Below are positions 12,600-23,033 of a stretch of 64,000 bases of DNA, piece by piece. Source of the stretch: Escherichia phage KIT01. The stretch's first letter is position 1, and every line of letters begins with the position of its first letter. The position numbers and the translations under genes are program-made. The notes under the pieces are model-generated. The model saw nothing but the letters and a program-made list of their open reading frames with translations. It did not search any database and was not told where the DNA came from. Location of the stretch: the sequence record AP019521.1, one strand, 5' to 3'.

Positions 12600-13688
12600 A
12601 TGAAAGTAAAAGAACTTGACTTTGATGTAGCCTCCTTGTTTAAAGGAGGTTCAAAGACCTCCGCAGGTCAATCTAAAACACAAGCAATAAAAACCACGGT
12701 AACCGCTCAGTACCCAGCTGAGCGTGCTTCAGGTAATGATACCTCAACCGATATGGTATTAAACGACCTCTATAAAAATGGATTGCTTTTTACTGCATAT
12801 AATTTTAGTTCTCGTGTATCTCCGGATTTGCGTAACGACCGTTCGAGTCAAATGACTAAAAAGTTCTCAAGTGCAGCCAGCAAATTAACAGGCAATAGTG
12901 GAACATATAGTGCTGTTAAAAACTTATTTGGTGGAAATACTAAGGGCGTTAAATTTGATACCCAAGCCTTAGCCAATATTCTTTTACCTCGTTCTAAATC
13001 TGATGTGGATTCCGTGTCACATAAATTTAACGATGTAGGCGAATCATTGATTACTAAAGGTGGTGGTACTGCTACAGGTATTTTGAGTAACGTTGCAAGT
13101 ACTGCGGTATTTGGTGCATTGGAATCTGTGACTAATGGTGTAATGGCTGATTCAGGTGAGCAGATATACACCACCGCTCGTAGTATGTACGCAGGGCCGG
13201 ATAACCGTACTAAGGTATTTACCTGGGAAATGACTCCACGAAACGCCCAAGACCTTATCCAGATTATTAAAATATATGAAATCTTTAATTACTATTCTTA
13301 TGGCGAAACAGGCAATTCAGCCTTCGCAGGTGAATTAAAAGATAAGATTGATACTTGGTACCGTTCTACATTTAAAAAAGAAGCTATTGACAAGTTTGAT
13401 GGTAAGCTATTAGGGGAAAGTATTACAAGCTTCCTTTCTAATGTTATTGTGGTAAGTAACCCGACCATTTGGTATATCCGAAACTTTGGCGATAGCAGTT
13501 CATATGATGGTCGTGAAGATATTTTTGGTCCATGCCAAATCCAGAGTATACGATTTGATAAAACCCCTGATGGCCATTTTAACGGATTAGCTATTGCTCC
13601 TAACTTACCATCTACATTTAGTTTAGAAGTTACTTTCCGTGAAATTATTACTCTTAACCGTGGCTCACTTTATACGGAAGGATTCTAA
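12600..13688 (+). CDS. 48: gp48 baseplate tail tube cap
   Basis: 362 aa; synteny and size match T4 gp48. Confidence 0.9.
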   Translation: MKVKELDFDVASLFKGGSKTSAGQSKTQAIKTTVTAQYPAERASGNDTSTDMVLNDLYKNGLLFTAYNFSSRVSPDLRNDRSSQMTKKFSSAASKLTGNSGTYSAVKNLFGGNTKGVKFDTQALANILLPRSKSDVDSVSHKFNDVGESLITKGGGTATGILSNVASTAVFGALESVTNGVMADSGEQIYTTARSMYAGPDNRTKVFTWEMTPRNAQDLIQIIKIYEIFNYYSYGETGNSAFAGELKDKIDTWYRSTFKKEAIDKFDGKLLGESITSFLSNVIVVSNPTIWYIRNFGDSSSYDGREDIFGPCQIQSIRFDKTPDGHFNGLAIAPNLPSTFSLEVTFREIITLNRGSLYTEGF

Positions 13689-14641
13689 TGTATACTTTAC
13701 AAGAATTTCAGAACCAGGCAATTAATATTGACCTACAGAGGAATAACCTGTTTAGTGTAGTATTTGCTACGGTTCCTTCTTCTAAATCCCAGGCGCTCCT
13801 CGACCAGTTCGGTGGAGCTTTATTTAACAATATCCCATTGAATACCGATTTGTTTGGTATTACACAAGGAGAGTTGACCCAAGGTGTTACGACATTAGTG
13901 ACAGCGGGCACTCAGAAGTTGATTCGTAAGTCAGGCATAAGTAAATATCTGATTGGAGCTATGTCATCCAGGGTTGTGCAGAGCTTACTAGGAGAGTTTG
14001 AAGTAGGTACATATCTGATGGATTTTTTCAATATGGCCTATCCTACGGCAGGTCTTTTAGTCCACGCCGTTAAAATCCCGGATAATACTTTGAACTATGA
14101 AATGGATTTGAACCACAACTCGCCTAACATCAAAATTACCGGAAGAGAATATTCTCCATTGGTATTAAGCTTCCGTATGGATTCTGAAGCTGCTAACTAC
14201 CGTGCTTTTAATGATTGGGTCAATAGTGTCCAAGACCCTATTACACAATTAAGAGCATTGCCTGAGGATGTTGAAGCCGACATTCAAGTCAACCTTCATT
14301 CTCGTAATGGATTACCCCATACAGTAGTAATGCTTAATGGTTGTGTTCCTGTTGGTGTTTCGTCACCAGAATTATCTTATGACGGTGATAACCAAATTGC
14401 TTCGTTTGATGTTACATTTGCTTATAGAAGTGTACAGACGGGTGCAGTTGGCAAACAAGCTGCTTATGAATGGTTGGAAGATAAAGTCCTTAAAGGCGTG
14501 GCAGGGATAAGTGAGAGCAATTCGCTGAGTTCTTCAGTAGCTAAATTAAGCCGACTTTCAGGAGCTTCTAGTGGATTAACAGGATTAGTTAATACATTTG
14601 GTGGGCGTGCTATTAATAATGGAATATCGAGGTTGTTATAA
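13688..14641 (+). CDS. 54: gp54 baseplate tail tube initiator
   Basis: 317 aa; synteny and size match T4 gp54. Confidence 0.9.
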   Translation: MYTLQEFQNQAINIDLQRNNLFSVVFATVPSSKSQALLDQFGGALFNNIPLNTDLFGITQGELTQGVTTLVTAGTQKLIRKSGISKYLIGAMSSRVVQSLLGEFEVGTYLMDFFNMAYPTAGLLVHAVKIPDNTLNYEMDLNHNSPNIKITGREYSPLVLSFRMDSEAANYRAFNDWVNSVQDPITQLRALPEDVEADIQVNLHSRNGLPHTVVMLNGCVPVGVSSPELSYDGDNQIASFDVTFAYRSVQTGAVGKQAAYEWLEDKVLKGVAGISESNSLSSSVAKLSRLSGASSGLTGLVNTFGGRAINNGISRLL

Positions 14642-14648
14642 CAAAAAA

Positions 14649-14670
14649 GGAGAGCATATGCTCTCCTTTA
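14649..14670. terminator. Bidirectional terminator between gene 54 and convergent minus-strand genes
   Basis: Perfect palindrome GGAGAGCATATGCTCTCC with A-run upstream and T-rich downstream. Confidence 0.6.
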
Positions 14671-14675
14671 GGGGT

Positions 14676-14966
14676 TTATTTACGGAACGAAATGAAACCT
14701 GCTGTGGTCATTAGTGGTTGCTTTTTAACAAAGACCGTGATAGAAATAGGAGCTTCAGATTCAAGCTGACCGGTTACTACACCATTAAAGATATTTTCAG
14801 TTTGTTCTGGATGAGAAAAATTCTCAACAGGTCGGATATCAAACTGTTTGTCTTCACCGAAAACTCGACGTAATTCATTACCTACTGCACTGTCAAACTC
14901 TTCGGAAGCAGGGATAACGTTTTCAACCACCAGTTCTTGACCATTAAAACGGAATGCAGATTTCAT
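14676..14966 (-). CDS. Hypothetical protein downstream of the alt cluster
   Basis: 96-aa ORF following the alt paralogs on the same strand. Confidence 0.5.
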   Translation of the reverse strand: MKSAFRFNGQELVVENVIPASEEFDSAVGNELRRVFGEDKQFDIRPVENFSHPEQTENIFNGVVTGQLESEAPISITVFVKKQPLMTTAGFISFRK

Positions 14967-15023: not shown

Positions 15024-17147
15024 CTACATTTTGAATTTATTTGATAAAGAAGAGATATCCAAAGACGCGGCAAGGATTTCCATAGCTTCGTTGCTTTCAG
15101 AAACGGATTCATTAACCAAGAATTGACTGAATCCATCCATCAGGCGAACTTCACCAGTTTCCATCAAATGGTCACCATCGTAAACAGATTCGCTGAGCTC
15201 TGAAGGAGGCGTTACGGTAGCTTCCATAAGGTATTTGTGAGATACTCTATCATTCATGGCAAAAGCCGCTACTTTATCAACCTTCAACAATAATCCACGC
15301 GGAAGGATAATTTCTGCTTCTTCGGCATATTCTGTAAGGTCACCAGGAGCGATAACTTTAACTGCTTCAGCACCTCGAATAACCATACCAATTTCAGCAA
15401 TTCTATCCGCAGGACCTTCAGGTGCAATTGGATTACCGAACTCGTCTTCTTCCCATTCTACCTCTTCGTCATCGACTTCACCCACATCAGATGAACTACC
15501 ACTAGCCAATTTAAACAACTCATCAGCAGAGGATAAAGAACCTTCACCACCAACAAAAACGGCTTGGTTGTCGAGGGCCATATAATTTTTACCAAATTCA
15601 CCAAAGATGTTAGGCTTTAATGAGGCTGACACAAAGTTCTTAAAGTAAAATGTTTTGTTATCGATATTATGGCGCAGAATTTTGTATGGCAAATCCTGAC
15701 CACGATACAAAATAGTACCCTTAGGAAGTTTAATACCCTTAGTAAATGCTGAGTCTAAATCCTTAATCAATTTAATAGCCGTTGTATTGTTTTCGGATTC
15801 AGGTTTACCTAAAAGGAATAAGTTCATAGGAGCATATTCAGCCGCGCAATATTCAATAATAGCATTGCTTTCGTCTTTGGTTAGGTCCTTAGGTTTAATG
15901 AGCTCGCCTGAATAAGCATATGCATCACTAATAGAATCGTTAACCAGTTTATAAACGGCTTCCATAGCGAAAGCAATTCGAGATGCTTTCTCTGAAGGGG
16001 AACCCTTAAAACGGGTACTCAGGTTATTAACAATTTTCTTAATAATATCCAGACTATTGGTTGTATTGATTTGCGAAAGGCCACTTAAAAGTCTATCGAC
16101 TTCTGTATTAAAAAATGCCATATTATTAGAGTAAATTTCAAACCCTTGTTTATCTCTATTAGCATAATTTAGTTTAAATTTACTATCAGTCATTAAAGCG
16201 TGTGTGAGAGCAATAGTGTATCTAAAGTTGGCAAGGTCCTCGCTCTTAGATTTAAACTGAGAAGCCTGGCGCATTTTAGTAATAGCACCTTTTTTAAAGT
16301 TCTGACTAATCTGTTCAATACCTTCGTTCTCAGGGCCTTCAGCCGTGTGAACCGGTACAGAAGCTTCAAACTCGTTATAAACCTGCAATTCTTTAGGGGA
16401 CAAAGTTTCAGGCTCAGCAGTAGAATACTGCGCGGCCGCTGCCATACGACGCGAAATCTTAGTACGAGTAATAACAGCCTTATCAGTACGTTTCTCTTCA
16501 ACTTGTGCAATAGATGCCGCTACGGCTTCGACCTTACTTACGGCCTGGCCAGTTTTCTTAGAAACATACACTTCGCCAACTTTAGACTCAACTTTAGTAT
16601 AAAGATCGGCATTAATTTCAGGCATACCCTTGATATCTTCAATATTAGCACCACGACGTACTAAAAGAACGTAGGTATGTTTTCCGCTGAATTGGAACAT
16701 GTCGTCAACAACTTTAAACTTACCACCGGTACGAGCCATAGCCAAACGAGCTAATACGCGCTGGACGGTAGGACCTTTACCTTTCATTTTCTTAGTAGGG
16801 AAACGGAACAAAACCGCGTCCATTTTAAGTTTGTTTACTTGTTCGTATATGGTATCGAAAATGGTGTTCAGTGTACCGAGTGGATCGGTACCCAAACCAC
16901 CCTTGAGTTCTGCCGGAGCGCCTTTAGCAGATAAACTCATTAAGATAACATGGACGTACTTATCACCATTTTTAACCATCTTAATAGCGTCGCCTTCAGA
17001 CGCATAAGATACCATACGTGCTACTAAATTGTCATTACCAGGAGCATGTACCGCAAAAATCTGCGGTACGCCTGAGCCAGGTTTAAGATTTGTTACTGGG
17101 TAATTTTTTTTATCGCTTTTATCAAAAACTTCGTTTAAATTTTCCAT
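15024..17147 (-). CDS. alt: Alt-like mono-ADP-ribosyltransferase, paralog 1 (acidic insert, SAS variant of the STS motif)
   Basis: 707 aa; N-terminal about 230 aa and C-terminal region match T4 Alt; has YRGQ, FVSASLKP and EIILPRG. Confidence 0.85.
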   Translation of the reverse strand: MENLNEVFDKSDKKNYPVTNLKPGSGVPQIFAVHAPGNDNLVARMVSYASEGDAIKMVKNGDKYVHVILMSLSAKGAPAELKGGLGTDPLGTLNTIFDTIYEQVNKLKMDAVLFRFPTKKMKGKGPTVQRVLARLAMARTGGKFKVVDDMFQFSGKHTYVLLVRRGANIEDIKGMPEINADLYTKVESKVGEVYVSKKTGQAVSKVEAVAASIAQVEEKRTDKAVITRTKISRRMAAAAQYSTAEPETLSPKELQVYNEFEASVPVHTAEGPENEGIEQISQNFKKGAITKMRQASQFKSKSEDLANFRYTIALTHALMTDSKFKLNYANRDKQGFEIYSNNMAFFNTEVDRLLSGLSQINTTNSLDIIKKIVNNLSTRFKGSPSEKASRIAFAMEAVYKLVNDSISDAYAYSGELIKPKDLTKDESNAIIEYCAAEYAPMNLFLLGKPESENNTTAIKLIKDLDSAFTKGIKLPKGTILYRGQDLPYKILRHNIDNKTFYFKNFVSASLKPNIFGEFGKNYMALDNQAVFVGGEGSLSSADELFKLASGSSSDVGEVDDEEVEWEEDEFGNPIAPEGPADRIAEIGMVIRGAEAVKVIAPGDLTEYAEEAEIILPRGLLLKVDKVAAFAMNDRVSHKYLMEATVTPPSELSESVYDGDHLMETGEVRLMDGFSQFLVNESVSESNEAMEILAASLDISSLSNKFKM

Positions 17148-17150
17148 TAT

Positions 17151-19196
17151 TTACCCTTGGGTGAATTTTTCTGGGGTTTCGTCAAAATTAATACATGAAG
17201 CTAAAATAGGCATTATATCCACCTTGGTCGATTTGACGAATGAATCAAAAGACACAGGGTTGTCGGTCTCTGTTTCTACGCCTTGGTAAACAACCAATTC
17301 GCCGGTTTCCATCAATGCATCACCATCATAGATAACCGCATTTTCTGCTAGTTGGTCTGTGGTCTGGATGTCAGCTTCCAATAATTTGGTGTTGTAGTTT
17401 CCTTTATATGAGGCATCTGTAATTTTAGTAATCTTAACAGTAGTTCCACGTGGAAGAATAACCTCTTGTTCTGTTGGAGAACCTGACAATTCACCGGGCA
17501 CAATTACGTTAATAGAGTCTGCACCGGAAATTTTCCAACCGATGTTCATCATTGTATTTTCGGAACTCGTCAGCATACTTGGAAGAACAATTTCATTATC
17601 GCCTTGGAAAGATGTCCCAGCACGATAGTCCTGATGAACTGCGGCCATTGCGACGTTTGATACCCAGCCGCCAAAGATAATCGGCTTAAGGGACGTTGAT
17701 ACATAGTTCCTGAAATAAAACAATTTTGAGTGTTTGATTTTATCAAAAGTGTTAACATTTAAATATTGACCACGCCAAAGTGTAATATCAGGTGGCAATT
17801 TATGGCCAATTTCAAATGCCGCATCCATATCATTAATTACTTCAATTACACGATAACTATCAATAAATTCTGCATCCTCTTCATAATAATTACCCAACAA
17901 ATAATTATTAACATCGGTATAATATTGGCCGCAATAAGAAGAAATAGCCTCACGCTGCTCATACTCAAATCGATTATCGCTATAACTGGCTGTAAAATGC
18001 ATAACACTTTCTGACGCTTCATTAGCAAAGTCGCTAACAGCAGCACTTATACGTTGAGCATACTCTTGTTCCCAAAGCTCTGCCGCATATTCTGCCGCAT
18101 CCATATTAGGAGGAGCCTCATTCATTTTTCTTTCGATAAATGCAGCTTTGCGAAGGTTAAGAACCTCTGCACATGATTCGGCAAAAATCTGCATCTGCTT
18201 CATACTGCCGACAGGAGCACGTTTAAGTTCACGATGCATACGGTTAAAAATTGGGTCGGAGTCTTCGACTCGAATTTCTTCTTTCCAAACACCGTTTGCT
18301 CGCATAGCCATATCTGCCGCGCGCATACGCTCCATAGTATTCGTTTCAGAAGGTTGAATAAAAATTTCTAGTTCTTCATAATCATCGATAAGTTCTGCTG
18401 TTGCTGGGGCGCTAAATTTTGATGCCTCTGCATCAATCTCATCCCAACCTTCCGGAACTTCATCTCGAGGAGAATACTGGGCTGCGGCTACAGCACGCCT
18501 AGAAATCTTGGTAGTAGTAATAACAGCCTTATCCGTACGTTTTTCTTCGACTGCAGCTATACTAGCAGATAGTGCTTCTATTTTGGTTACTGATTGGCCT
18601 GTTTTCTTGGATACATAAACCTCACCAACTTTAGACTCAACCTTAGTGTAAAGGTCTGCATCAATTTCAGGCATACCTTTTATGTCCTCAATATTAGCTT
18701 GTTTACGAACCAGTAAAACGTATGTATGTTTGCCTGTAAATTGATACAAATCATCGACAACTTTAAACTTGCCGCCAGTACGAGCCATCGCCAAACGTGC
18801 CAATACACGTTGAACAGTAGGACCTTTACCTTTCATTTTCTTGGTAGGGAACCGGAAAAGAACTGCATCCATACGAAGAGCTTTAACTTGTTCGTATACA
18901 GTATCAAAAATGGTATTCAGCGTACCAAGTGGGTCAGAACCTAACCCGCCTTTCAACTCGGCTGGGGTACCCTTAGCAGACAAACTCATCAAAATAACAT
19001 GAACATATTTATCGCCCGGCTTAACCATTTTAATAGCGTCTCCTTGAGACGCATAAGATACCATACGAGCAACCAGGTTATCGTTACCTGGTGCTTGGAT
19101 AGAGAAAATCTGTGGAATACCGGAACCCGGTTTAAGATTTACTACTGGATAGTTTTTAGCGGAATCACTATCAAAAACCTCGTTTAAATTTTCCAT
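17151..19196 (-). CDS. alt: Alt-like mono-ADP-ribosyltransferase, paralog 2
   Basis: 681 aa; conserved N-terminus (MENLNEVFD...PQIFS...), WRGQ, YVSTSLKP and EVILPRG motifs; divergent central region. Confidence 0.85.
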   Translation of the reverse strand: MENLNEVFDSDSAKNYPVVNLKPGSGIPQIFSIQAPGNDNLVARMVSYASQGDAIKMVKPGDKYVHVILMSLSAKGTPAELKGGLGSDPLGTLNTIFDTVYEQVKALRMDAVLFRFPTKKMKGKGPTVQRVLARLAMARTGGKFKVVDDLYQFTGKHTYVLLVRKQANIEDIKGMPEIDADLYTKVESKVGEVYVSKKTGQSVTKIEALSASIAAVEEKRTDKAVITTTKISRRAVAAAQYSPRDEVPEGWDEIDAEASKFSAPATAELIDDYEELEIFIQPSETNTMERMRAADMAMRANGVWKEEIRVEDSDPIFNRMHRELKRAPVGSMKQMQIFAESCAEVLNLRKAAFIERKMNEAPPNMDAAEYAAELWEQEYAQRISAAVSDFANEASESVMHFTASYSDNRFEYEQREAISSYCGQYYTDVNNYLLGNYYEEDAEFIDSYRVIEVINDMDAAFEIGHKLPPDITLWRGQYLNVNTFDKIKHSKLFYFRNYVSTSLKPIIFGGWVSNVAMAAVHQDYRAGTSFQGDNEIVLPSMLTSSENTMMNIGWKISGADSINVIVPGELSGSPTEQEVILPRGTTVKITKITDASYKGNYNTKLLEADIQTTDQLAENAVIYDGDALMETGELVVYQGVETETDNPVSFDSFVKSTKVDIMPILASCINFDETPEKFTQG

Positions 19197-19199
19197 TAT

Positions 19200-21287
19200 T
19201 TACCCTTGGATGAATTTTTCTGGGATGTCATAGAGGTCTATGCATGAAGCCAAAAGAGACAGTACATCAAACCGTGTAGATTTAACAAATGAATCAAAAG
19301 ATACGGGGCTTTCGGAAGTATCGAAATCATCTTGATATACGACCAACTCACCGGTTTCCATTAGTACGTCACCATCATATACCACAGATTCTTGAAGCTC
19401 ATCTGATGTCATAACTTCAGCTTGAATAAATTTATTGTTAGACCCAGCCCCAGAACCAGTATTGGCTGATGCATCCACGATTTTATCTATTTTTACAAGT
19501 AGCCCGCGTGGTAAAATTATTTCCTTTTCGTTGGCATGCATGCTTAATTGGCCAGGATAAATCACGTTAACCTTATGAGCGCCACTAATAGCCCAGCCAA
19601 CATCAACCCGGATTTGATCCGGTGCATACATATGTGTACGCACTTGACTATCAGAGATGGTAACGCCTTCGTCATTATTATCAACGTTTAATTCTTTTCG
19701 AACATCATCGGAAGCAAGACCAATAGCCGCATTCTCTTTAAAGCCACCAAAAATGATTGGAGCCAATGAGGTTGAAACATAGTTTCTAAAATAGAATACC
19801 TTATTTTTAACTAATGCTTCGTAGATAGGCGCGCGCAAAGATTGGGCTCTATAAACCATTATTCCTTCAGGTAAACGGTCACCATTTTTAAAGGCCGAAT
19901 CCATTCCATCAATAGCACGTTTAACTTCGCTTTCGTCCAAAACTTCATAAAAGCCTGGTTTATAACGGCCAAGAAGGACATTGTTGATATCAACATAAGC
20001 TGAAGAGGCGTATTCTCTGATAGCTCGTTTTTCTGCAAGTGTATATTGTTTAGGGTCTCGAGATGTTGTTATATTAAGAATTTCTCTAGTTGATTCTATA
20101 GCGTATGTATACATTATCTTAGACAAGAATGAAGACTTACGTTGTTTCCATACTCTTTCACTGTTTTCATTCAATATCTCTTTTTCCAAATGGAAATTGT
20201 CTTTTCTATAATCTTCAAACCAATCACTTTTAATAGATTCTGCGATTTCATTAGCAGCTTCAACAAAGGCAGCTAAAGCTTTAACTGACGTGGTTTTTTC
20301 ATTTTTAATTTTTTTGACAAATTTTTCTAAAGAAGAGTTAATTTTATCACCGTAAGAAACTTCATCCGCAAATTTAAATGAATCATCCATAGTATTATAA
20401 ATTTTAAAATCAATAGCCGTAGCCAGCTTATCCTTAGCTGTTTCGGATGATAATGATAATTCAACTTCGGCTGCTTGTGGAATTAATTCCGCCGTAGCAG
20501 GTGCACTGAACTCATTGGCAGTTTGTTCATATTTCTGAAACAATTCACCTTCATTACGGTCTGCTTCTAATGACTGACTTGCTGCAATAGCACGACGGGA
20601 AATCTTAGTTTTGGTTATAACCATTTTATCAGTGCGACGTTCTTCAACTTTAGCAATACTGCCGGCAATAGCAGTTTCTTTAGTAACCTGCATGCCTTCT
20701 TTTTTAGAAATATAAACTTCACCGACATCAGAATCTACCTTAGTATATAATTCAGCATTAATTTCTGGTATACCCTTAATATCTTCAATGTTAGCTTGTT
20801 TACGAACTACCAGAATATAAGTATGTTTGCCGGTGAATTCATACATGGCTGGAACTACTTTAAATCGTCCACCAGTTTTCTGTGCTACTAAACGTTGAAT
20901 AATACGTTGAACGATAGGACCTTGTCCTTTCATTTTCTTGGTAGGGAACCGGAACATCACGGCATCCATACGAAGAGCTTTAACTTGTTCGTAGACAACA
21001 CTAAAGATAGTATTAATTGCATCGATAGGAGTAGGGCCAAGGCCACCCTTAAGTTCTGCTGGAGTACCTTTAGCTGATAAACTCATCAGAATAACGTGGG
21101 CATATTTATCACCTAATTTAACTTGTTTGATCGCGTCTCCTTGAGACGCATAAGATACCATACGAGCAACTAATTGGGACTCTGCATCGCCAATCTTCCA
21201 AATCTGGGGTACTTTAAGTTTAGGGTTCAAGTTTACTGTAGGCAGTGTGCCTTCGGACTCAAACACTTCATTTAATTGTTCGGTCAT
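19200..21287 (-). CDS. alt: Alt-like mono-ADP-ribosyltransferase, paralog 3 (closest to T4 Alt)
   Basis: 695 aa; YRAQSL, RNYVSTSLAP, NEKEIILPRGLLVKIDKI and C-terminal LMETGELV all match T4 Alt. Confidence 0.88.
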   Translation of the reverse strand: MTEQLNEVFESEGTLPTVNLNPKLKVPQIWKIGDAESQLVARMVSYASQGDAIKQVKLGDKYAHVILMSLSAKGTPAELKGGLGPTPIDAINTIFSVVYEQVKALRMDAVMFRFPTKKMKGQGPIVQRIIQRLVAQKTGGRFKVVPAMYEFTGKHTYILVVRKQANIEDIKGIPEINAELYTKVDSDVGEVYISKKEGMQVTKETAIAGSIAKVEERRTDKMVITKTKISRRAIAASQSLEADRNEGELFQKYEQTANEFSAPATAELIPQAAEVELSLSSETAKDKLATAIDFKIYNTMDDSFKFADEVSYGDKINSSLEKFVKKIKNEKTTSVKALAAFVEAANEIAESIKSDWFEDYRKDNFHLEKEILNENSERVWKQRKSSFLSKIMYTYAIESTREILNITTSRDPKQYTLAEKRAIREYASSAYVDINNVLLGRYKPGFYEVLDESEVKRAIDGMDSAFKNGDRLPEGIMVYRAQSLRAPIYEALVKNKVFYFRNYVSTSLAPIIFGGFKENAAIGLASDDVRKELNVDNNDEGVTISDSQVRTHMYAPDQIRVDVGWAISGAHKVNVIYPGQLSMHANEKEIILPRGLLVKIDKIVDASANTGSGAGSNNKFIQAEVMTSDELQESVVYDGDVLMETGELVVYQDDFDTSESPVSFDSFVKSTRFDVLSLLASCIDLYDIPEKFIQG

Positions 21288-21337
21288 AATAATTCCTCTT
21301 TAATAACCTTATTTATGCCAGAAAAGGCCCGAAGGCC

Positions 21338-21508
21338 TTAAAGTGGTAGCAACGTACGGTATACTTCGAATGTCGGGCCTTTTTCGTAGCCATCAAATGT
21401 GTCTTTAAAATCGGCAAAAGCTATTTCGTCCTCAAAATCAAGGATGATTTGAGAGACTGCCGTGGTATTTGTATTTGATACAACAACTGTTTCTAAATAA
21501 ACTTTCAT
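21338..21508 (-). CDS. Small hypothetical protein between ligase and alt
   Basis: 56-aa ORF from ATG at 21508, immediately after the ligase stop. Confidence 0.4.
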   Translation of the reverse strand: MKVYLETVVVSNTNTTAVSQIILDFEDEIAFADFKDTFDGYEKGPTFEVYRTLLPL

Positions 21509-21509
21509 A

Positions 21510-23033
21510 TTATAACCCAGTTTGAGACCAATCGCCAAATACATCTTCAAATGTATCAGCTTCTGTTTTATCGAAACGCCAACCTTTAATGATTGGAAGG
21601 AAAATACCTACAGTATCGGTACGTCCTTTAGAATGAACCCAACCATTACATTCACAGTCGGCAATACGGCCAATCAATTTACCTTCACGAGCTTGTTTCA
21701 TAAGAAGTTCACGGTCTAAATCAGGACGGTCTTCCAATGGAATCAATACCTTTTTACCTGATTTATCTTTCTTATGGGTGGTATCTTTAAAGCCTGAACC
21801 ACAGTCACTTGTAATTCTACGACAACGTGATACCAATTCAACACCACCAAGTTTGTTAGGGTCTTTCGAGTGTTCATAGTAACCTACTACTTCTAAAGCG
21901 ATATCGATTACTTCTTTGAACTTGATAAGATTCTTAGAACGGCGGTTTTCCCAGTAGGAGTCCATGTTCTTAAGGATAATACCTTCCAGACCTTGGTCGA
22001 CATATTTCTTATAAACGACTTTAGCTTCTTCAAGATTATTAACCCACCGGTTTTCGATAGCTTCAACACGCGTTGTACCGTGCAATACGACATTATGAGC
22101 AACCATAAGTTCTAAGGCTGTAAAGCGTACATCGTACTTATCGCCTTTAATTTTACCTTCGGAATACACGACATCCAGTGGAACATAATCCCATGCCTGT
22201 AATACCATACCGGCAGCTTCAGTAGCGGAAATAGTTCCTTGGAGAGCTTTATTAGCCAGGCCATTTGACGTAGAACGATCGGCGACAGTTTGGAATTCCT
22301 TAGCCTTACTTAATTCAGGAAGTTCCTCATCAAACATACTAAACAAATCATTAGATGCTTTAGGTTCTACTTTAGGAGTATGGTAAACTAATTCGCCATC
22401 AATCATAACACCATTAGGATGGCGTTGTCGAGCTTCTTCGGTCATGGCCATTAATTCAGCAGCTAAAAGATGAAGCCCTTGGTATTCATTACCACCACGA
22501 GTAAGGAATGTCACACCATCGTTACGAACTTCAGCAAAACAACGGGCGCCATCAGCTTTTAATTGAGCAAACGCTGGCCATTTAATATTTTTCTTAATCA
22601 AATCTTCATCATAAGAGCTAGCTAACATTTGAGGTTGTTCAGGGATTAAACCTTTCCAAACCTTGTTAGCAATGGAAATCGATGCACCGCATTCAAGGTC
22701 GCGCATCATTACACGACGTAATACCTCGGCATCTTGAGCCTTAGCATCGGCAATGATTTGAGCCAGTTCTTCAATAGCTGCATTACCGGTAACCTTACGA
22801 GTGGCTAATGTGAATTCAGCGAAATCAAGAAGGTCTTCAAGAGTAATCATACCAAAGGATTGAGACGTAAATCCAGGTTCAGGCCACTTTTTAATACCGT
22901 AGTTCAGACGACGAGTATAAGCCATACGATATACGCGTTTCAGAAGCTCATTATCCTTTTCACGAGCAATAATAGCTTCTTTAGCTTTAGTAGAATCAAT
23001 AGAAGCAATTTCGTTTAAAATATCTAAAATCAT
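21510..23033 (-). CDS. 30: ATP-dependent DNA ligase (gp30)
   Basis: 507 aa; strong match to T4 DNA ligase (MIL.ILNEIASI.STK.K.AI...; adenylation motif KADGARCFAEVR). Confidence 0.95.
   Translation of the reverse strand: MILDILNEIASIDSTKAKEAIIAREKDNELLKRVYRMAYTRRLNYGIKKWPEPGFTSQSFGMITLEDLLDFAEFTLATRKVTGNAAIEELAQIIADAKAQDAEVLRRVMMRDLECGASISIANKVWKGLIPEQPQMLASSYDEDLIKKNIKWPAFAQLKADGARCFAEVRNDGVTFLTRGGNEYQGLHLLAAELMAMTEEARQRHPNGVMIDGELVYHTPKVEPKASNDLFSMFDEELPELSKAKEFQTVADRSTSNGLANKALQGTISATEAAGMVLQAWDYVPLDVVYSEGKIKGDKYDVRFTALELMVAHNVVLHGTTRVEAIENRWVNNLEEAKVVYKKYVDQGLEGIILKNMDSYWENRRSKNLIKFKEVIDIALEVVGYYEHSKDPNKLGGVELVSRCRRITSDCGSGFKDTTHKKDKSGKKVLIPLEDRPDLDRELLMKQAREGKLIGRIADCECNGWVHSKGRTDTVGIFLPIIKGWRFDKTEADTFEDVFGDWSQTGL

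Follow-up and report, generated by a model that had tools for sequence, protein, structure and literature searches.

Why should a T4-type phage keep three consecutive full-length alt genes, and do these genes encode one enzyme three times or three different enzymes? This question is raised by the alt locus of Escherichia phage KIT01 (sequence record AP019521.1), analysed here within a window of 64,000 nucleotides, i.e., the whole stretch of DNA under consideration.

Genomic context of the alt array

The locus (15024-21287) consists of three successive minus-strand ORFs of 707, 681 and 695 aa, whose limits, as determined by ORF calling, are exactly those claimed by an earlier sequence-only reading of this DNA. 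The array starts with paralog C (19200-21287, 695 aa), continues with paralog B (17151-19196, 681 aa) and ends with paralog A (15024-17147, 707 aa), all three consisting of intact ORFs. Neighbouring alt genes are separated by 3-nt gaps (stop TAA, ATA, ATG), both alt-alt junctions reading CAAGGGTAAATAATG, and each downstream gene has its ribosome-binding site within the final codons of the gene before it; the translation-initiation regions of A, B and C are near-identical, and the start-to-start spacing from A to B amounts to 2049 bp. The array is located between gene 30/alt.1 and alt.-3/gene 54, with the DNA ligase (gene 30) ORF (21510-23033) and the alt.1 homologue (21338-21550) on one side, and the alt.-3 homologue (14676-14966, minus strand, 96 aa; DUF5498, Pfam PF17602, E 1e-34, JS98 annotation) and the gp54 ORF (13688-14641) on the other, an order which matches that of JS98, QL01, T4 and T6.

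A late-promoter-like box, CATAAATA (21310-21317, minus strand), lies 22 nt upstream of the C start codon, the Shine-Dalgarno sequence AAAGAGGAA coming after it. It matches the T4 late-promoter box TATAAATA at 7 of 8 positions, no perfect TATAAATA being found by a plain search near the alt array. The box is preceded, at the end of the alt.1 homologue, by the terminator-like hairpin AAGGCCTTCGGGCCTT (21324-21339, minus strand), which is conserved with T4, where TATAAATA lies at the equivalent place upstream of alt, after the same hairpin; a terminator upstream of alt has been reported as conserved (PMC1524935). At the opposite end, the intrinsic terminator-like hairpin AAAGGAGAGCATATGCTCTCCTTT with its T run (14646-14669, minus strand; 10-bp stem including 5 G-C pairs) closes the alt operon after the alt.-3 homologue, the last gene of the transcription unit. 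These signals suggest a single late transcription unit leading from the late-promoter-like box through C, B, A and alt.-3 to the terminator, and C, B and A would be expressed late in infection.

KIT01 is a T4-type coliphage, and its alt locus is that of a Dhakavirus resembling JS98, positions 15024-21287 being 96.7% identical to Dhakavirus UGJNEcP3/P4, in which the same three genes are annotated. The three-gene array is annotated in UGJNEcP3/P4, QL01, MX01, C6, AnYang and fDHCT2, and in at least eight public Dhakavirus genomes altogether; the three-alt arrangement, already annotated in near-identical public phages, is thus not new. Duplication of alt has also been published for JS98, Bp7, Ac42, ZZ1 and 44RR (PMC4177764, PMC1524935), and T6 contains two full-length tandem copies. 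The earlier statement that T4 carries one alt in this position was right, if incomplete, T4 also possessing alt.-1 and alt.-2, annotated as remnants of an old duplication (PMC1524935).

Domains, catalytic motifs and predicted processing sites

All three proteins match PHROG 802, "Alt-like RNA polymerase ADP-ribosyltransferase", end to end (residues 1-707 of A, 1-680 of B and 1-694 of C; E 2e-248 to 3e-257, the latter for C), and Pfam PF03496 (ADPrib_exo_Tox) matches their C-terminal part (E 3e-17 to 5e-29), in two separate pieces for A. The cluster representative of B (99% identical) and each of the 120 homologues listed have both PF26846 and PF03496 assigned to them.

The conserved N-terminal domain (A, 16428-17129, aa 7-240, pI 9.7; equivalent regions of B, 18477-19178, and C, 20568-21266; all minus strand) corresponds to Pfam PF26846 (Tevenvirinae_ADPRT). 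It is basic in all three paralogs (pI 9.6-9.7) and adopts an alpha/beta fold modelled with confidence (pLDDT 85-93). A GNAT acetyltransferase fold was considered as a candidate for this domain, on the criteria of structural similarity to GNAT proteins and of the acetyl-CoA-binding motif A ([QR]-x-x-G-x-[GA]). Pairwise alignment of the N-terminal columns 1-242 yields identities of 87% (A/B), 66% (A/C) and 71% (B/C), so that the shared region previously set at about 230 aa is real and extends over about 240. The central domain (A, 15873-16427, aa 241-425; equivalent regions of B, 17982-18476, and C, 20043-20567; all minus strand) has no match in Pfam. It is all-helical in the model of A (pLDDT 45-73) and helical in that of B (pLDDT ~90), shares 10-25% identity between paralogs (16-25% when measured over columns 243-430) and is the least conserved part across the Alt family. 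The centre had rightly been singled out as the most divergent part, although it covers ~165-190 aa instead of 200-250. Divergence extends, however, into the ART domain (A, 15189-15872, aa 426-653, Pfam PF03496; equivalent regions of B, 17343-17981, and C, 19389-20042; all minus strand): the C-terminal parts of the paralogs are 35-46% identical and the ART domain itself 33-40%, and the variable unit comprises the centre plus the ART domain (~aa 240-630) rather than the centre alone. Conservation along the protein follows the same course family-wide as it does among the copies of this genome.

The R / S-x-S / E-x-E motifs announced for the C-terminal ART domain are kept in A, B and C, i.e., R482 (LYRGQ), S507-A-S509 (FVSASL) and E610-A-E612 (EAEIILPRG) in A, R475 (LWRGQ), S500-T-S502 (YVSTSL) and E576-Q-E578 (EQEVILPRG) in B, and R480 (VYRAQ), S505-T-S507 (YVSTSL) and E587-K-E589 (EKEIILPRG) in C; retention of the catalytic residues by a single paralog, which had been named as fatal to the proposal, was looked for, and the motifs are intact in all three. 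Among 65 Alt family members, the S and both E residues are invariant and the R is at least 90% conserved. In ARTs of the C3/VIP2 type, the E-x-E motif denotes the arginine-specific type, and in C3-like ARTs the region between S-x-S and E-x-E governs the choice of substrate. The length of the loop between these two motifs varies by up to 40 aa among A, B and C, the ART domain of A containing an acidic insertion of ~40 aa at this place. The activity of A is the least certain of the three because of its S-A-S motif, this insertion, the split Pfam match and a central model of low confidence. The AlphaFold model of B (mean pLDDT 81.6, pTM 0.72) was compared with the PDB using Foldseek, and matches Vis (4xzj, E 3.3e-7, TMt 0.65) as well as C3bot, VIP2 (1qs2), iota Ia, CDTa and Certhrax, all with probability 1.00 (E 3e-7 to 5e-5 for Vis, C3, VIP2, iota Ia and CDTa).

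Cleavage of T4 Alt at ITE-6 and LTE-619 leaves a protein of 68.2 kDa (PMC5694885), and the ends of the propeptides of A, B and C were placed by alignment with these cleavage sites. The mature mass of T4 Alt derived from this alignment, 68.2 kDa, agrees with the published one, and record X15811 notes "6 amino acids cleaved off". The predicted N-terminal propeptides are MENLNE in A (17130-17147, cleavage after E6) and in B (19179-19196), and MTEQLNE in C (21267-21287). The predicted C-terminal propeptides follow L-S-E653 in A (15024-15188, aa 654-707 plus the stop codon), L-A-E618 in B (17151-17342) and L-Q-E633 in C (19200-19388), all on the minus strand, and the predicted mature masses reach 71.2, 68.3 and 69.9 kDa for A, B and C, respectively. 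An L-x-E motif thus occurs in the alignment at both homologous gp21 cleavage positions of all three paralogs. Since L/I-x-E motifs are frequent (5-12 per protein), conservation of the two sites supports cleavage without proving it. As far as can be judged from their sequences, A, B and C all keep the determinants of T4 Alt packaging and processing, namely both gp21 motifs and the late-promoter-like site. About 40 copies of Alt are present in each T4 head and are ejected with the DNA (PMC9958956, PMC9026906), and by analogy A, B and C would be packaged, cleaved and injected.

Ancestry of the Alt cassettes

The array had been described as a tandem triplication, but a recent local event of this kind does not agree with the data. 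Synonymous sites are saturated in all A/B/C pairs (pS 0.64-0.70 in the N-domain, for a dN of 0.10-0.31), and the N-domain, with a dN/dS far below 1, is the most strongly constrained part. In addition, each cassette is nearest to a different phage lineage. Taken together, these two observations point to an old set of Alt cassettes in a common frame.

A shares with T6 alt.-2 44% identity in the N-domain, 45% in the centre, 60% in the ART domain and 68% in the C-propeptide, vs 42, 10, 36 and 42% with T6 alt; by these values, the cassette and C-terminal tail of A correspond to T6 alt.-2. B is closest in its internal part to the alt of L005, an unclassified T4-like phage with a single alt (N-domain 40%, centre 74%, ART 73%, C-propeptide 60%); its identities to P0002-P0004 are 40-41%, 74-83% and 73-78% for the first three regions. 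C, with 47% (N-domain), 34% (centre), 63% (ART) and 52% (C-propeptide) identity to T6 alt, belongs on this comparison to the T4/T6-type "alt proper" lineage. Among Dhakavirus phages, C is the counterpart of JS98 alta (97.8% identical, 96-100% in all four regions) and A that of JS98 altb, B being absent from JS98; A and B are 97-100% identical to their QL01 copies in all four regions.

The third copy of QL01 differs from C inside sharp limits, the nucleotide identity being 81-99% over nt 1-720, 38-76% over nt 721-1890 and 96-100% over nt 1891-2088, with protein identities of 36-37% (centre), 64% (ART) and 97% (C-propeptide). Similarly, T6 alt and T4 alt are 100% identical in the N-domain, 31% in the centre, 68% in the ART domain and 93% in the C-propeptide, whereas T6 alt and the QL01 third copy share 47% in the N-domain, 94% in the ART domain and 51% in the C-propeptide. 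Ancestry changes abruptly at ~aa 240 and ~aa 630, the flanks and the internal effector part being discordant. Judged by these identities, the N-domain (~240 aa) and the C-terminal 54-63 aa follow the phage lineage and not the cassette. Mosaic ancestry is thereby clearly shown, and Alt is best described as a fixed frame, presumably for delivery, with exchangeable enzyme cassettes.

An old duplication combined with the recombinational import of cassettes between phage lineages would account for the origin of the array. Recombination between the repeated N-domains may also remove units, as in the case of JS98, where altb is a B/A chimera and the locus measures 4215 bp vs 6264 bp here, i.e., about one 2049-bp repeat unit less.

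Proposed function and related systems

We consider it reasonably probable that the locus encodes three old, intact, late-made, head-packaged and injected arginine-specific Alt paralogs, which share a frame but carry different cassettes and probably address different targets. The constant frame would consist of the N-terminal propeptide of 6-7 aa, the basic alpha/beta N-domain of ~235 aa and the C-terminal propeptide of 54-63 aa, and the variable cassette of the all-helical domain plus a C3/VIP2-type ART domain with the R-S-E signature. If A, B and C behave like T4 Alt, the frame would bring each protein into the prohead core, where the gp21 protease would trim both ends; the mature proteins would leave the head along with the DNA, and their E-x-E active sites would ADP-ribosylate arginines of host proteins at the very start of infection. 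As the cassettes share no more than 10-40% identity, A, B and C are most likely directed at host protein sets that differ, though they may overlap, and each is predicted to be active. Divergence of the cassettes is not in itself proof of different substrates; T4 Alt on its own reportedly modifies many proteins, its known targets including RNA polymerase alpha, MazF and many others.

It is rather unlikely that the three enzymes all modify RNA polymerase alpha and owe their diversity to allelic variation of the target or to an arms race with host factors blocking, reversing or sensing a given Alt variant. The family name and its sole well-studied function do concern RNA polymerase (PMC10468400), the catalytic core and arginine-type signature are alike in all three, and cassettes are swapped within one host range (94% for the ART of T6 and QL01), as expected of interchangeable alleles. 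However, RNA polymerase alpha varies very little among enterobacteria, which makes target variation an unlikely driver; moreover, the helical domain is wholly replaced, the S-x-S/E-x-E loops differ in length, and three variants kept together in one genome fit complementary roles better.

Against a single active enzyme accompanied by decayed copies, either on their way to becoming remnants or kept for a role of the N-domain in the prohead core or DNA packing, stand the intactness of all three ORFs over ~2.1 kb each, the retention of every catalytic and processing motif, the 97-100% identity of the QL01/JS98 orthologues in the central and ART regions, which indicates that these regions are being maintained, and the conserved relatives of each ART part in other genera. 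This reading appears improbable, even if it would agree with the strong constraint on the N-domain, the S-A-S and large acidic insertion of A, the decay of a second copy in T4 and the loss of unit B in JS98, and the larger amount of DNA packaged by T4 alt mutants (PMC3012670), which means that Alt takes up head volume. Dosage is commonly raised by tandem duplication, and one operon holds all copies under near-identical initiation regions, but it is very improbable that the array simply raises the amount of Alt per virion while the sequences drift neutrally: divergence is confined to a bounded cassette with relatives in other phage lineages, which argues for import, and the flanks are under strong purifying selection.

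The three paralogs, for which different host targets are the preferred reading, resemble T4 Alt (gpAlt, UniProt P12726), a head-packaged NAD:arginine mono-ADP-ribosyltransferase, in genomic position, in the succession of hairpin and late-promoter box upstream, in the four-part layout (N-domain, helical centre, ART, C-terminal tail), and in the R / S-T-S / E-x-E (S-A-S in A) and both L/I-x-E cleavage motifs. In the N-domain, A and B are each 42% identical to T4 Alt and C is 47% identical; the corresponding values are 13-24% for the centre and 38-56% for the ART domain, and T4 has one alt plus remnants in place of three copies. Gene order and spacing are identical in the other three-copy Dhakavirus phages, although the first array gene of QL01, MX01 and C6 bears a cassette different from that of C, whereas JS98 (alta/altb) has two copies, unit B being kept here. 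Other Tevenvirinae with tandem alt genes comprise T6/T2/RB14 (alt + alt.-2), Acinetobacter ZZ1 and Ac42, and Aeromonas 44RR.

The R-S-E toxins C3, VIP2, iota-toxin and Vis have the ART fold, the active-site motifs and PF03496 in common with Alt (target-normalised TM up to 0.65 for the ART domain, Foldseek probability 1.0) in spite of only ~15-18% sequence identity. They are, however, devoid of the Alt N-domain, helical centre and propeptides, and occur as secreted proteins or binary-toxin A components acting on eukaryotic proteins, in contrast to Alt, which is virion cargo. In a few metagenomic proteins, the Alt N-domain is followed by a C-terminus other than an ART. With T4 IPI-III and polymorphic-toxin-like systems, Alt shares the principle of combining a constant targeting part with varied cargo that is delivered along with the DNA, and the IP loci are likewise highly polymorphic within the T-even group (PMC3012670). 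IP targeting relies on a peptide of ~10 aa, whereas the Alt frame consists of a folded ~235-aa domain plus a ~60-aa C-terminal propeptide and, unlike in the T4 IPs, the variable cassette of Alt is internal and flanked on both sides.

Organization of the alt array, with its predicted expression and packaging

Alt, a classic phage enzyme which is injected along with the DNA and is non-essential in T4, is represented in the window by three consecutive paralogs located on the minus strand, namely A (15024-17147, 707 aa), B (17151-19196, 681 aa) and C (19200-21287, 695 aa), the limits of which are exactly those proposed by the sequence-only reading. All three match PHROG 802, the profile of the Alt family, from end to end (E 2e-248 to 3e-257) and contain the Pfam domain PF03496 in their C-terminal third; NCBIfam gave no match for any of them. 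Adjacent genes are separated by 3 nt and both junctions read CAAGGGTAAATAATG, so that the end of each upstream reading frame contains, within its final codons, the purine-rich putative ribosome-binding site for the gene that follows. It is nearly certain that A, B and C are three intact genes of the Alt family belonging to a single transcription unit.

On one side, the array is flanked by the plus-strand genes for gp29, gp48 and gp54 and by the alt.-3 homologue (14676-14966, minus strand), a 96-aa DUF5498 protein whose gene closes the alt operon. T4 Alt.-3 mutants with a C-terminal extension evade the CmdTAC defence system (PMC11618068). On the other side occur a 70-aa alt.1 homologue read from a TTG start (21338-21550, minus strand; Pfam PF24647 'Phage_blade', E 6e-23) and the DNA ligase. 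As listed, the last 41 nt of the ligase gene also belong to the alt.1 ORF, the annotated length of which varies among relatives (JS98, 171 nt; QL01, 183 nt; UGJNEcP3, 219 nt).

Upstream of C, a hairpin, AAGGCCTTCGGGCCTT, precedes CATAAATA (21310-21317), a box which matches the T4 late promoter at seven of eight positions and occupies the homologous position; in T4, the same hairpin stands before the late-promoter box TATAAATA ahead of alt. Together with a strong terminator-like hairpin after alt.-3 (14646-14669), these elements support a single late operon read in the order C, B, A, alt.-3. No perfect T4 late promoter was found near the array, and a scan for sigma-70 promoters remained at background (21 found versus 19.9 expected).

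The T4 prohead core takes in about 40 Alt molecules, which are ejected with the DNA (PMC9958956, PMC9026906). According to mass spectrometry, T4 Alt is cut by the prohead protease gp21 at ITE-6 and LTE-619, giving a mature protein of 68.2 kDa (PMC5694885), a value also obtained from our own alignment. In this alignment, L-x-E motifs occupy both T4-homologous cleavage positions in A (LNE-6 and LSE-653, predicted mature protein of 71.2 kDa), B (LNE-6 and LAE-618, 68.3 kDa predicted) and C (LNE-7 and LQE-633, 69.9 kDa predicted), and we infer that gp21 would cleave each of them at both ends. As judged from their sequences, the three proteins are likely made late, taken into the prohead by way of their common frame, trimmed at both ends and injected.

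Constant frame and exchanged cassettes

Identity among the paralogs reaches 66-87% over the first 240 aa or so, falls to 10-25% over the next 165-190 aa approximately, and amounts to 33-40% in the ADP-ribosyltransferase (ART) domain and 36-63% in the last 54-63 aa. The common N-terminal region and the divergent centre announced by the sequence-only reading are thus readily recognized, with corrected sizes of about 240 aa instead of 230 and about 165-190 aa instead of 200-250. Since 65 family members give the same conservation profile, the variable centre is a trait of the family and not a peculiarity of this genome. The AlphaFold model of B (pLDDT 81.6, pTM 0.72) consists of four parts, an alpha/beta N-domain (residues 18-200), connecting helices followed by an all-helical domain (residues 250-403), an ART domain (residues 412-617) and a poorly defined C-terminal tail. 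A fold search related the ART domain to Vis, C3, VIP2, iota Ia and CDTa, and returned toxin matches for this domain only. No solved structure of an Alt relative was found by sequence search, and the central domains have no Pfam match below E 0.05.

The catalytic R, S-x-S and E-x-E motifs occur in all of A, B and C, not in just one paralog, the motif S-A-S being found in A together with a 40-aa acidic insertion between S-x-S and E-x-E. This insertion (…VGEVDDEEVEWEEDEFGNPIAPEG…; about 40 aa, within 15390-15560, around aa 530-585 of A) is restricted to A among the paralogs, occurs also in JS98 altb, and splits the Pfam ART match in two.

The term triplication, as applied to a recent event, has to be abandoned, since the proportion of synonymous differences is saturated between all pairs of paralogs (0.64-0.70), N-domain included. 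Even the N-domains of A and B, which are 86-87% identical as proteins (dN 0.10), still have saturated synonymous sites. Both a recent triplication and gene conversion are thereby excluded as the source of the N-terminal likeness, and the substitution pattern indicates that the N-domain is kept by purifying selection, not by recent copying.

Comparisons between phages, with identities given in the order N-domain / centre / ART / C-terminal tail, differ widely from one region to another. B shares 40 / 74 / 73 / 60% with the single alt gene of L005, an unclassified T4-like phage, and 91 / 18 / 38 / 59% with one of the two Alt proteins of Bp7 (P0005). C shares 95 / 36-37 / 64 / 97% with the third copy of QL01, and A shares 44 / 45 / 60 / 68% with T6 alt.-2 and 42 / 10 / 36 / 42% with T6 alt. 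T6 alt shares 100 / 31 / 68 / 93% with T4 alt and 47 / 63 / 94 / 51% with the third copy of QL01. Between C and this QL01 copy, nucleotide identity is 81-99% up to about nt 720, only 38-76% from there to about nt 1890, and 96-100% beyond; the remaining breakpoints were confirmed by sliding nucleotide windows. The distal breakpoint, around aa 630, coincides with the predicted C-terminal gp21 site (aa 633 in C). These discordant identities and breakpoints imply that the N-domain and the C-terminal propeptide, which form the frame, track the phage lineage, whereas the helical domain and the ART domain form a cassette moving between lineages and genera.

Even the classic phages T4 (2504-4552 in L004, the T4 locus) and T6 (3504-5597 in L007, the T6 locus) have different Alt cassettes, as shown by their nearly identical frames associated with a centre at 31% and an ART domain at 68%, and what is learned from T4 Alt may not hold for T6 or T2. 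T6 alt and the third copy of the Dhakavirus QL01 (8677-10761 in L003, the QL01 locus) have ART domains with 94% protein identity and 82-94% nucleotide identity, their flanks being about 50% identical, a sequence pattern which indicates a fairly recent exchange between genera. No paper describing cassette exchange at alt was found in a limited literature search, and novelty is not claimed.

JS98, the type phage, possesses two copies, alta and altb, in a locus of 4215 bp versus 6264 bp, shorter by about one repeat unit (the start-to-start spacing from A to B is 2049 bp). The first 190 nt or so of its altb are 96-100% identical to B, the gene is A-like past about nt 450-580, and along it the 187 informative sites switch from the B to the A type across a zone where both are mixed. 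That JS98 has two copies is best accounted for by a three-copy ancestor in which the N-domain repeats of B and A recombined.

Possible functions of the array

A, B and C most probably have different substrate sets, because the helical domain and the loops lying between S-x-S and E-x-E are the parts that differ most, and because three variants are kept together. Other explanations would have all three proteins act on the same target while evading host countermeasures, or some copies be partly inactive, or the array simply provide dosage; all are less well supported than different substrate sets. A limited literature search found no study of what a second or third Alt copy does. T4 Alt is known to act on RNA polymerase alpha and MazF, along with many other substrates (PMC10468400, PMC10286901); it is therefore plausible that the extra cassettes help to disable host defence proteins.

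More tentatively, and with a rather less than even chance that all parts hold together, the alt locus of T-even-type phages could be regarded as a polymorphic effector system. The frame, for which the gp21 cleavage site marks the limit on the C-terminal side, would co-evolve with the head core of each phage, and the helical-plus-ART cassettes it carries would move horizontally among phage genera. Grouped in arrays of one to three, the cassettes would constitute a virion-delivered arsenal, each of them disabling a different host protein, abortive-infection toxins such as MazF among them, ahead of any phage gene expression; the N-domain could also deliver non-ART cargo.

The N-domain is not widely distributed, with just 72 cluster representatives, mostly of Alt-like lengths, among 1.84 billion proteins. 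It may deliver other cargo. The Alt N-domain is present (E 1e-14 to 1e-21) in four metagenomic proteins, P0173 (1142 aa), P0174 (485 aa), P0176 (347 aa) and P0177 (541 aa), whose C-terminal regions have no ART or other Pfam or PHROG match. A Foldseek search against viral models weakly links the model of residues 1-425 of A, comprising the N-domain and the helical centre, to large proteins encoded by Ackermannviridae-like and jumbo phages (E 1e-5 to 1e-2), some of them named zeta-toxin, deaminase or ParB domain proteins.

With its three divergent cassettes set in an identical frame, the array is a ready-made natural experiment, in which cassette swaps or deletions should reveal both the part setting target choice and whether extra copies neutralise host defences. 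The frame, which is delimited here from the recombination breakpoints and from the cleavage sites known in T4, could also serve to package foreign proteins into T4-type heads.

Comparison with known alt loci

The N-domain was located by tblastn at 1,749 places in 1,201 phage records. The 6.3-kb array region is 96.7% identical to the Dhakavirus Escherichia phages UGJNEcP3 and UGJNEcP4, in whose records the same three genes are annotated as Alt-like ADP-ribosyltransferases, and three copies also occur in QL01, MX01, C6, AnYang, fDHCT2 and LHE83. T6 contains two full-length tandem copies with an identical 3-nt spacing. Duplications of alt have been published for JS98, Bp7 and Ac42, together with three Alt-like genes in ZZ1 (PMC4177764), and 44RR possesses a full-length duplicate, alt.-1 and alt.-2 of T4 being remnants (PMC1524935). 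Given these annotations and publications, the three-copy arrangement is not new; the observation made by the sequence-only reading holds, and its interpretation is supported only in part. What the present analysis adds to the known loci is the picture of a frame and its cassettes, and the deletion in JS98.
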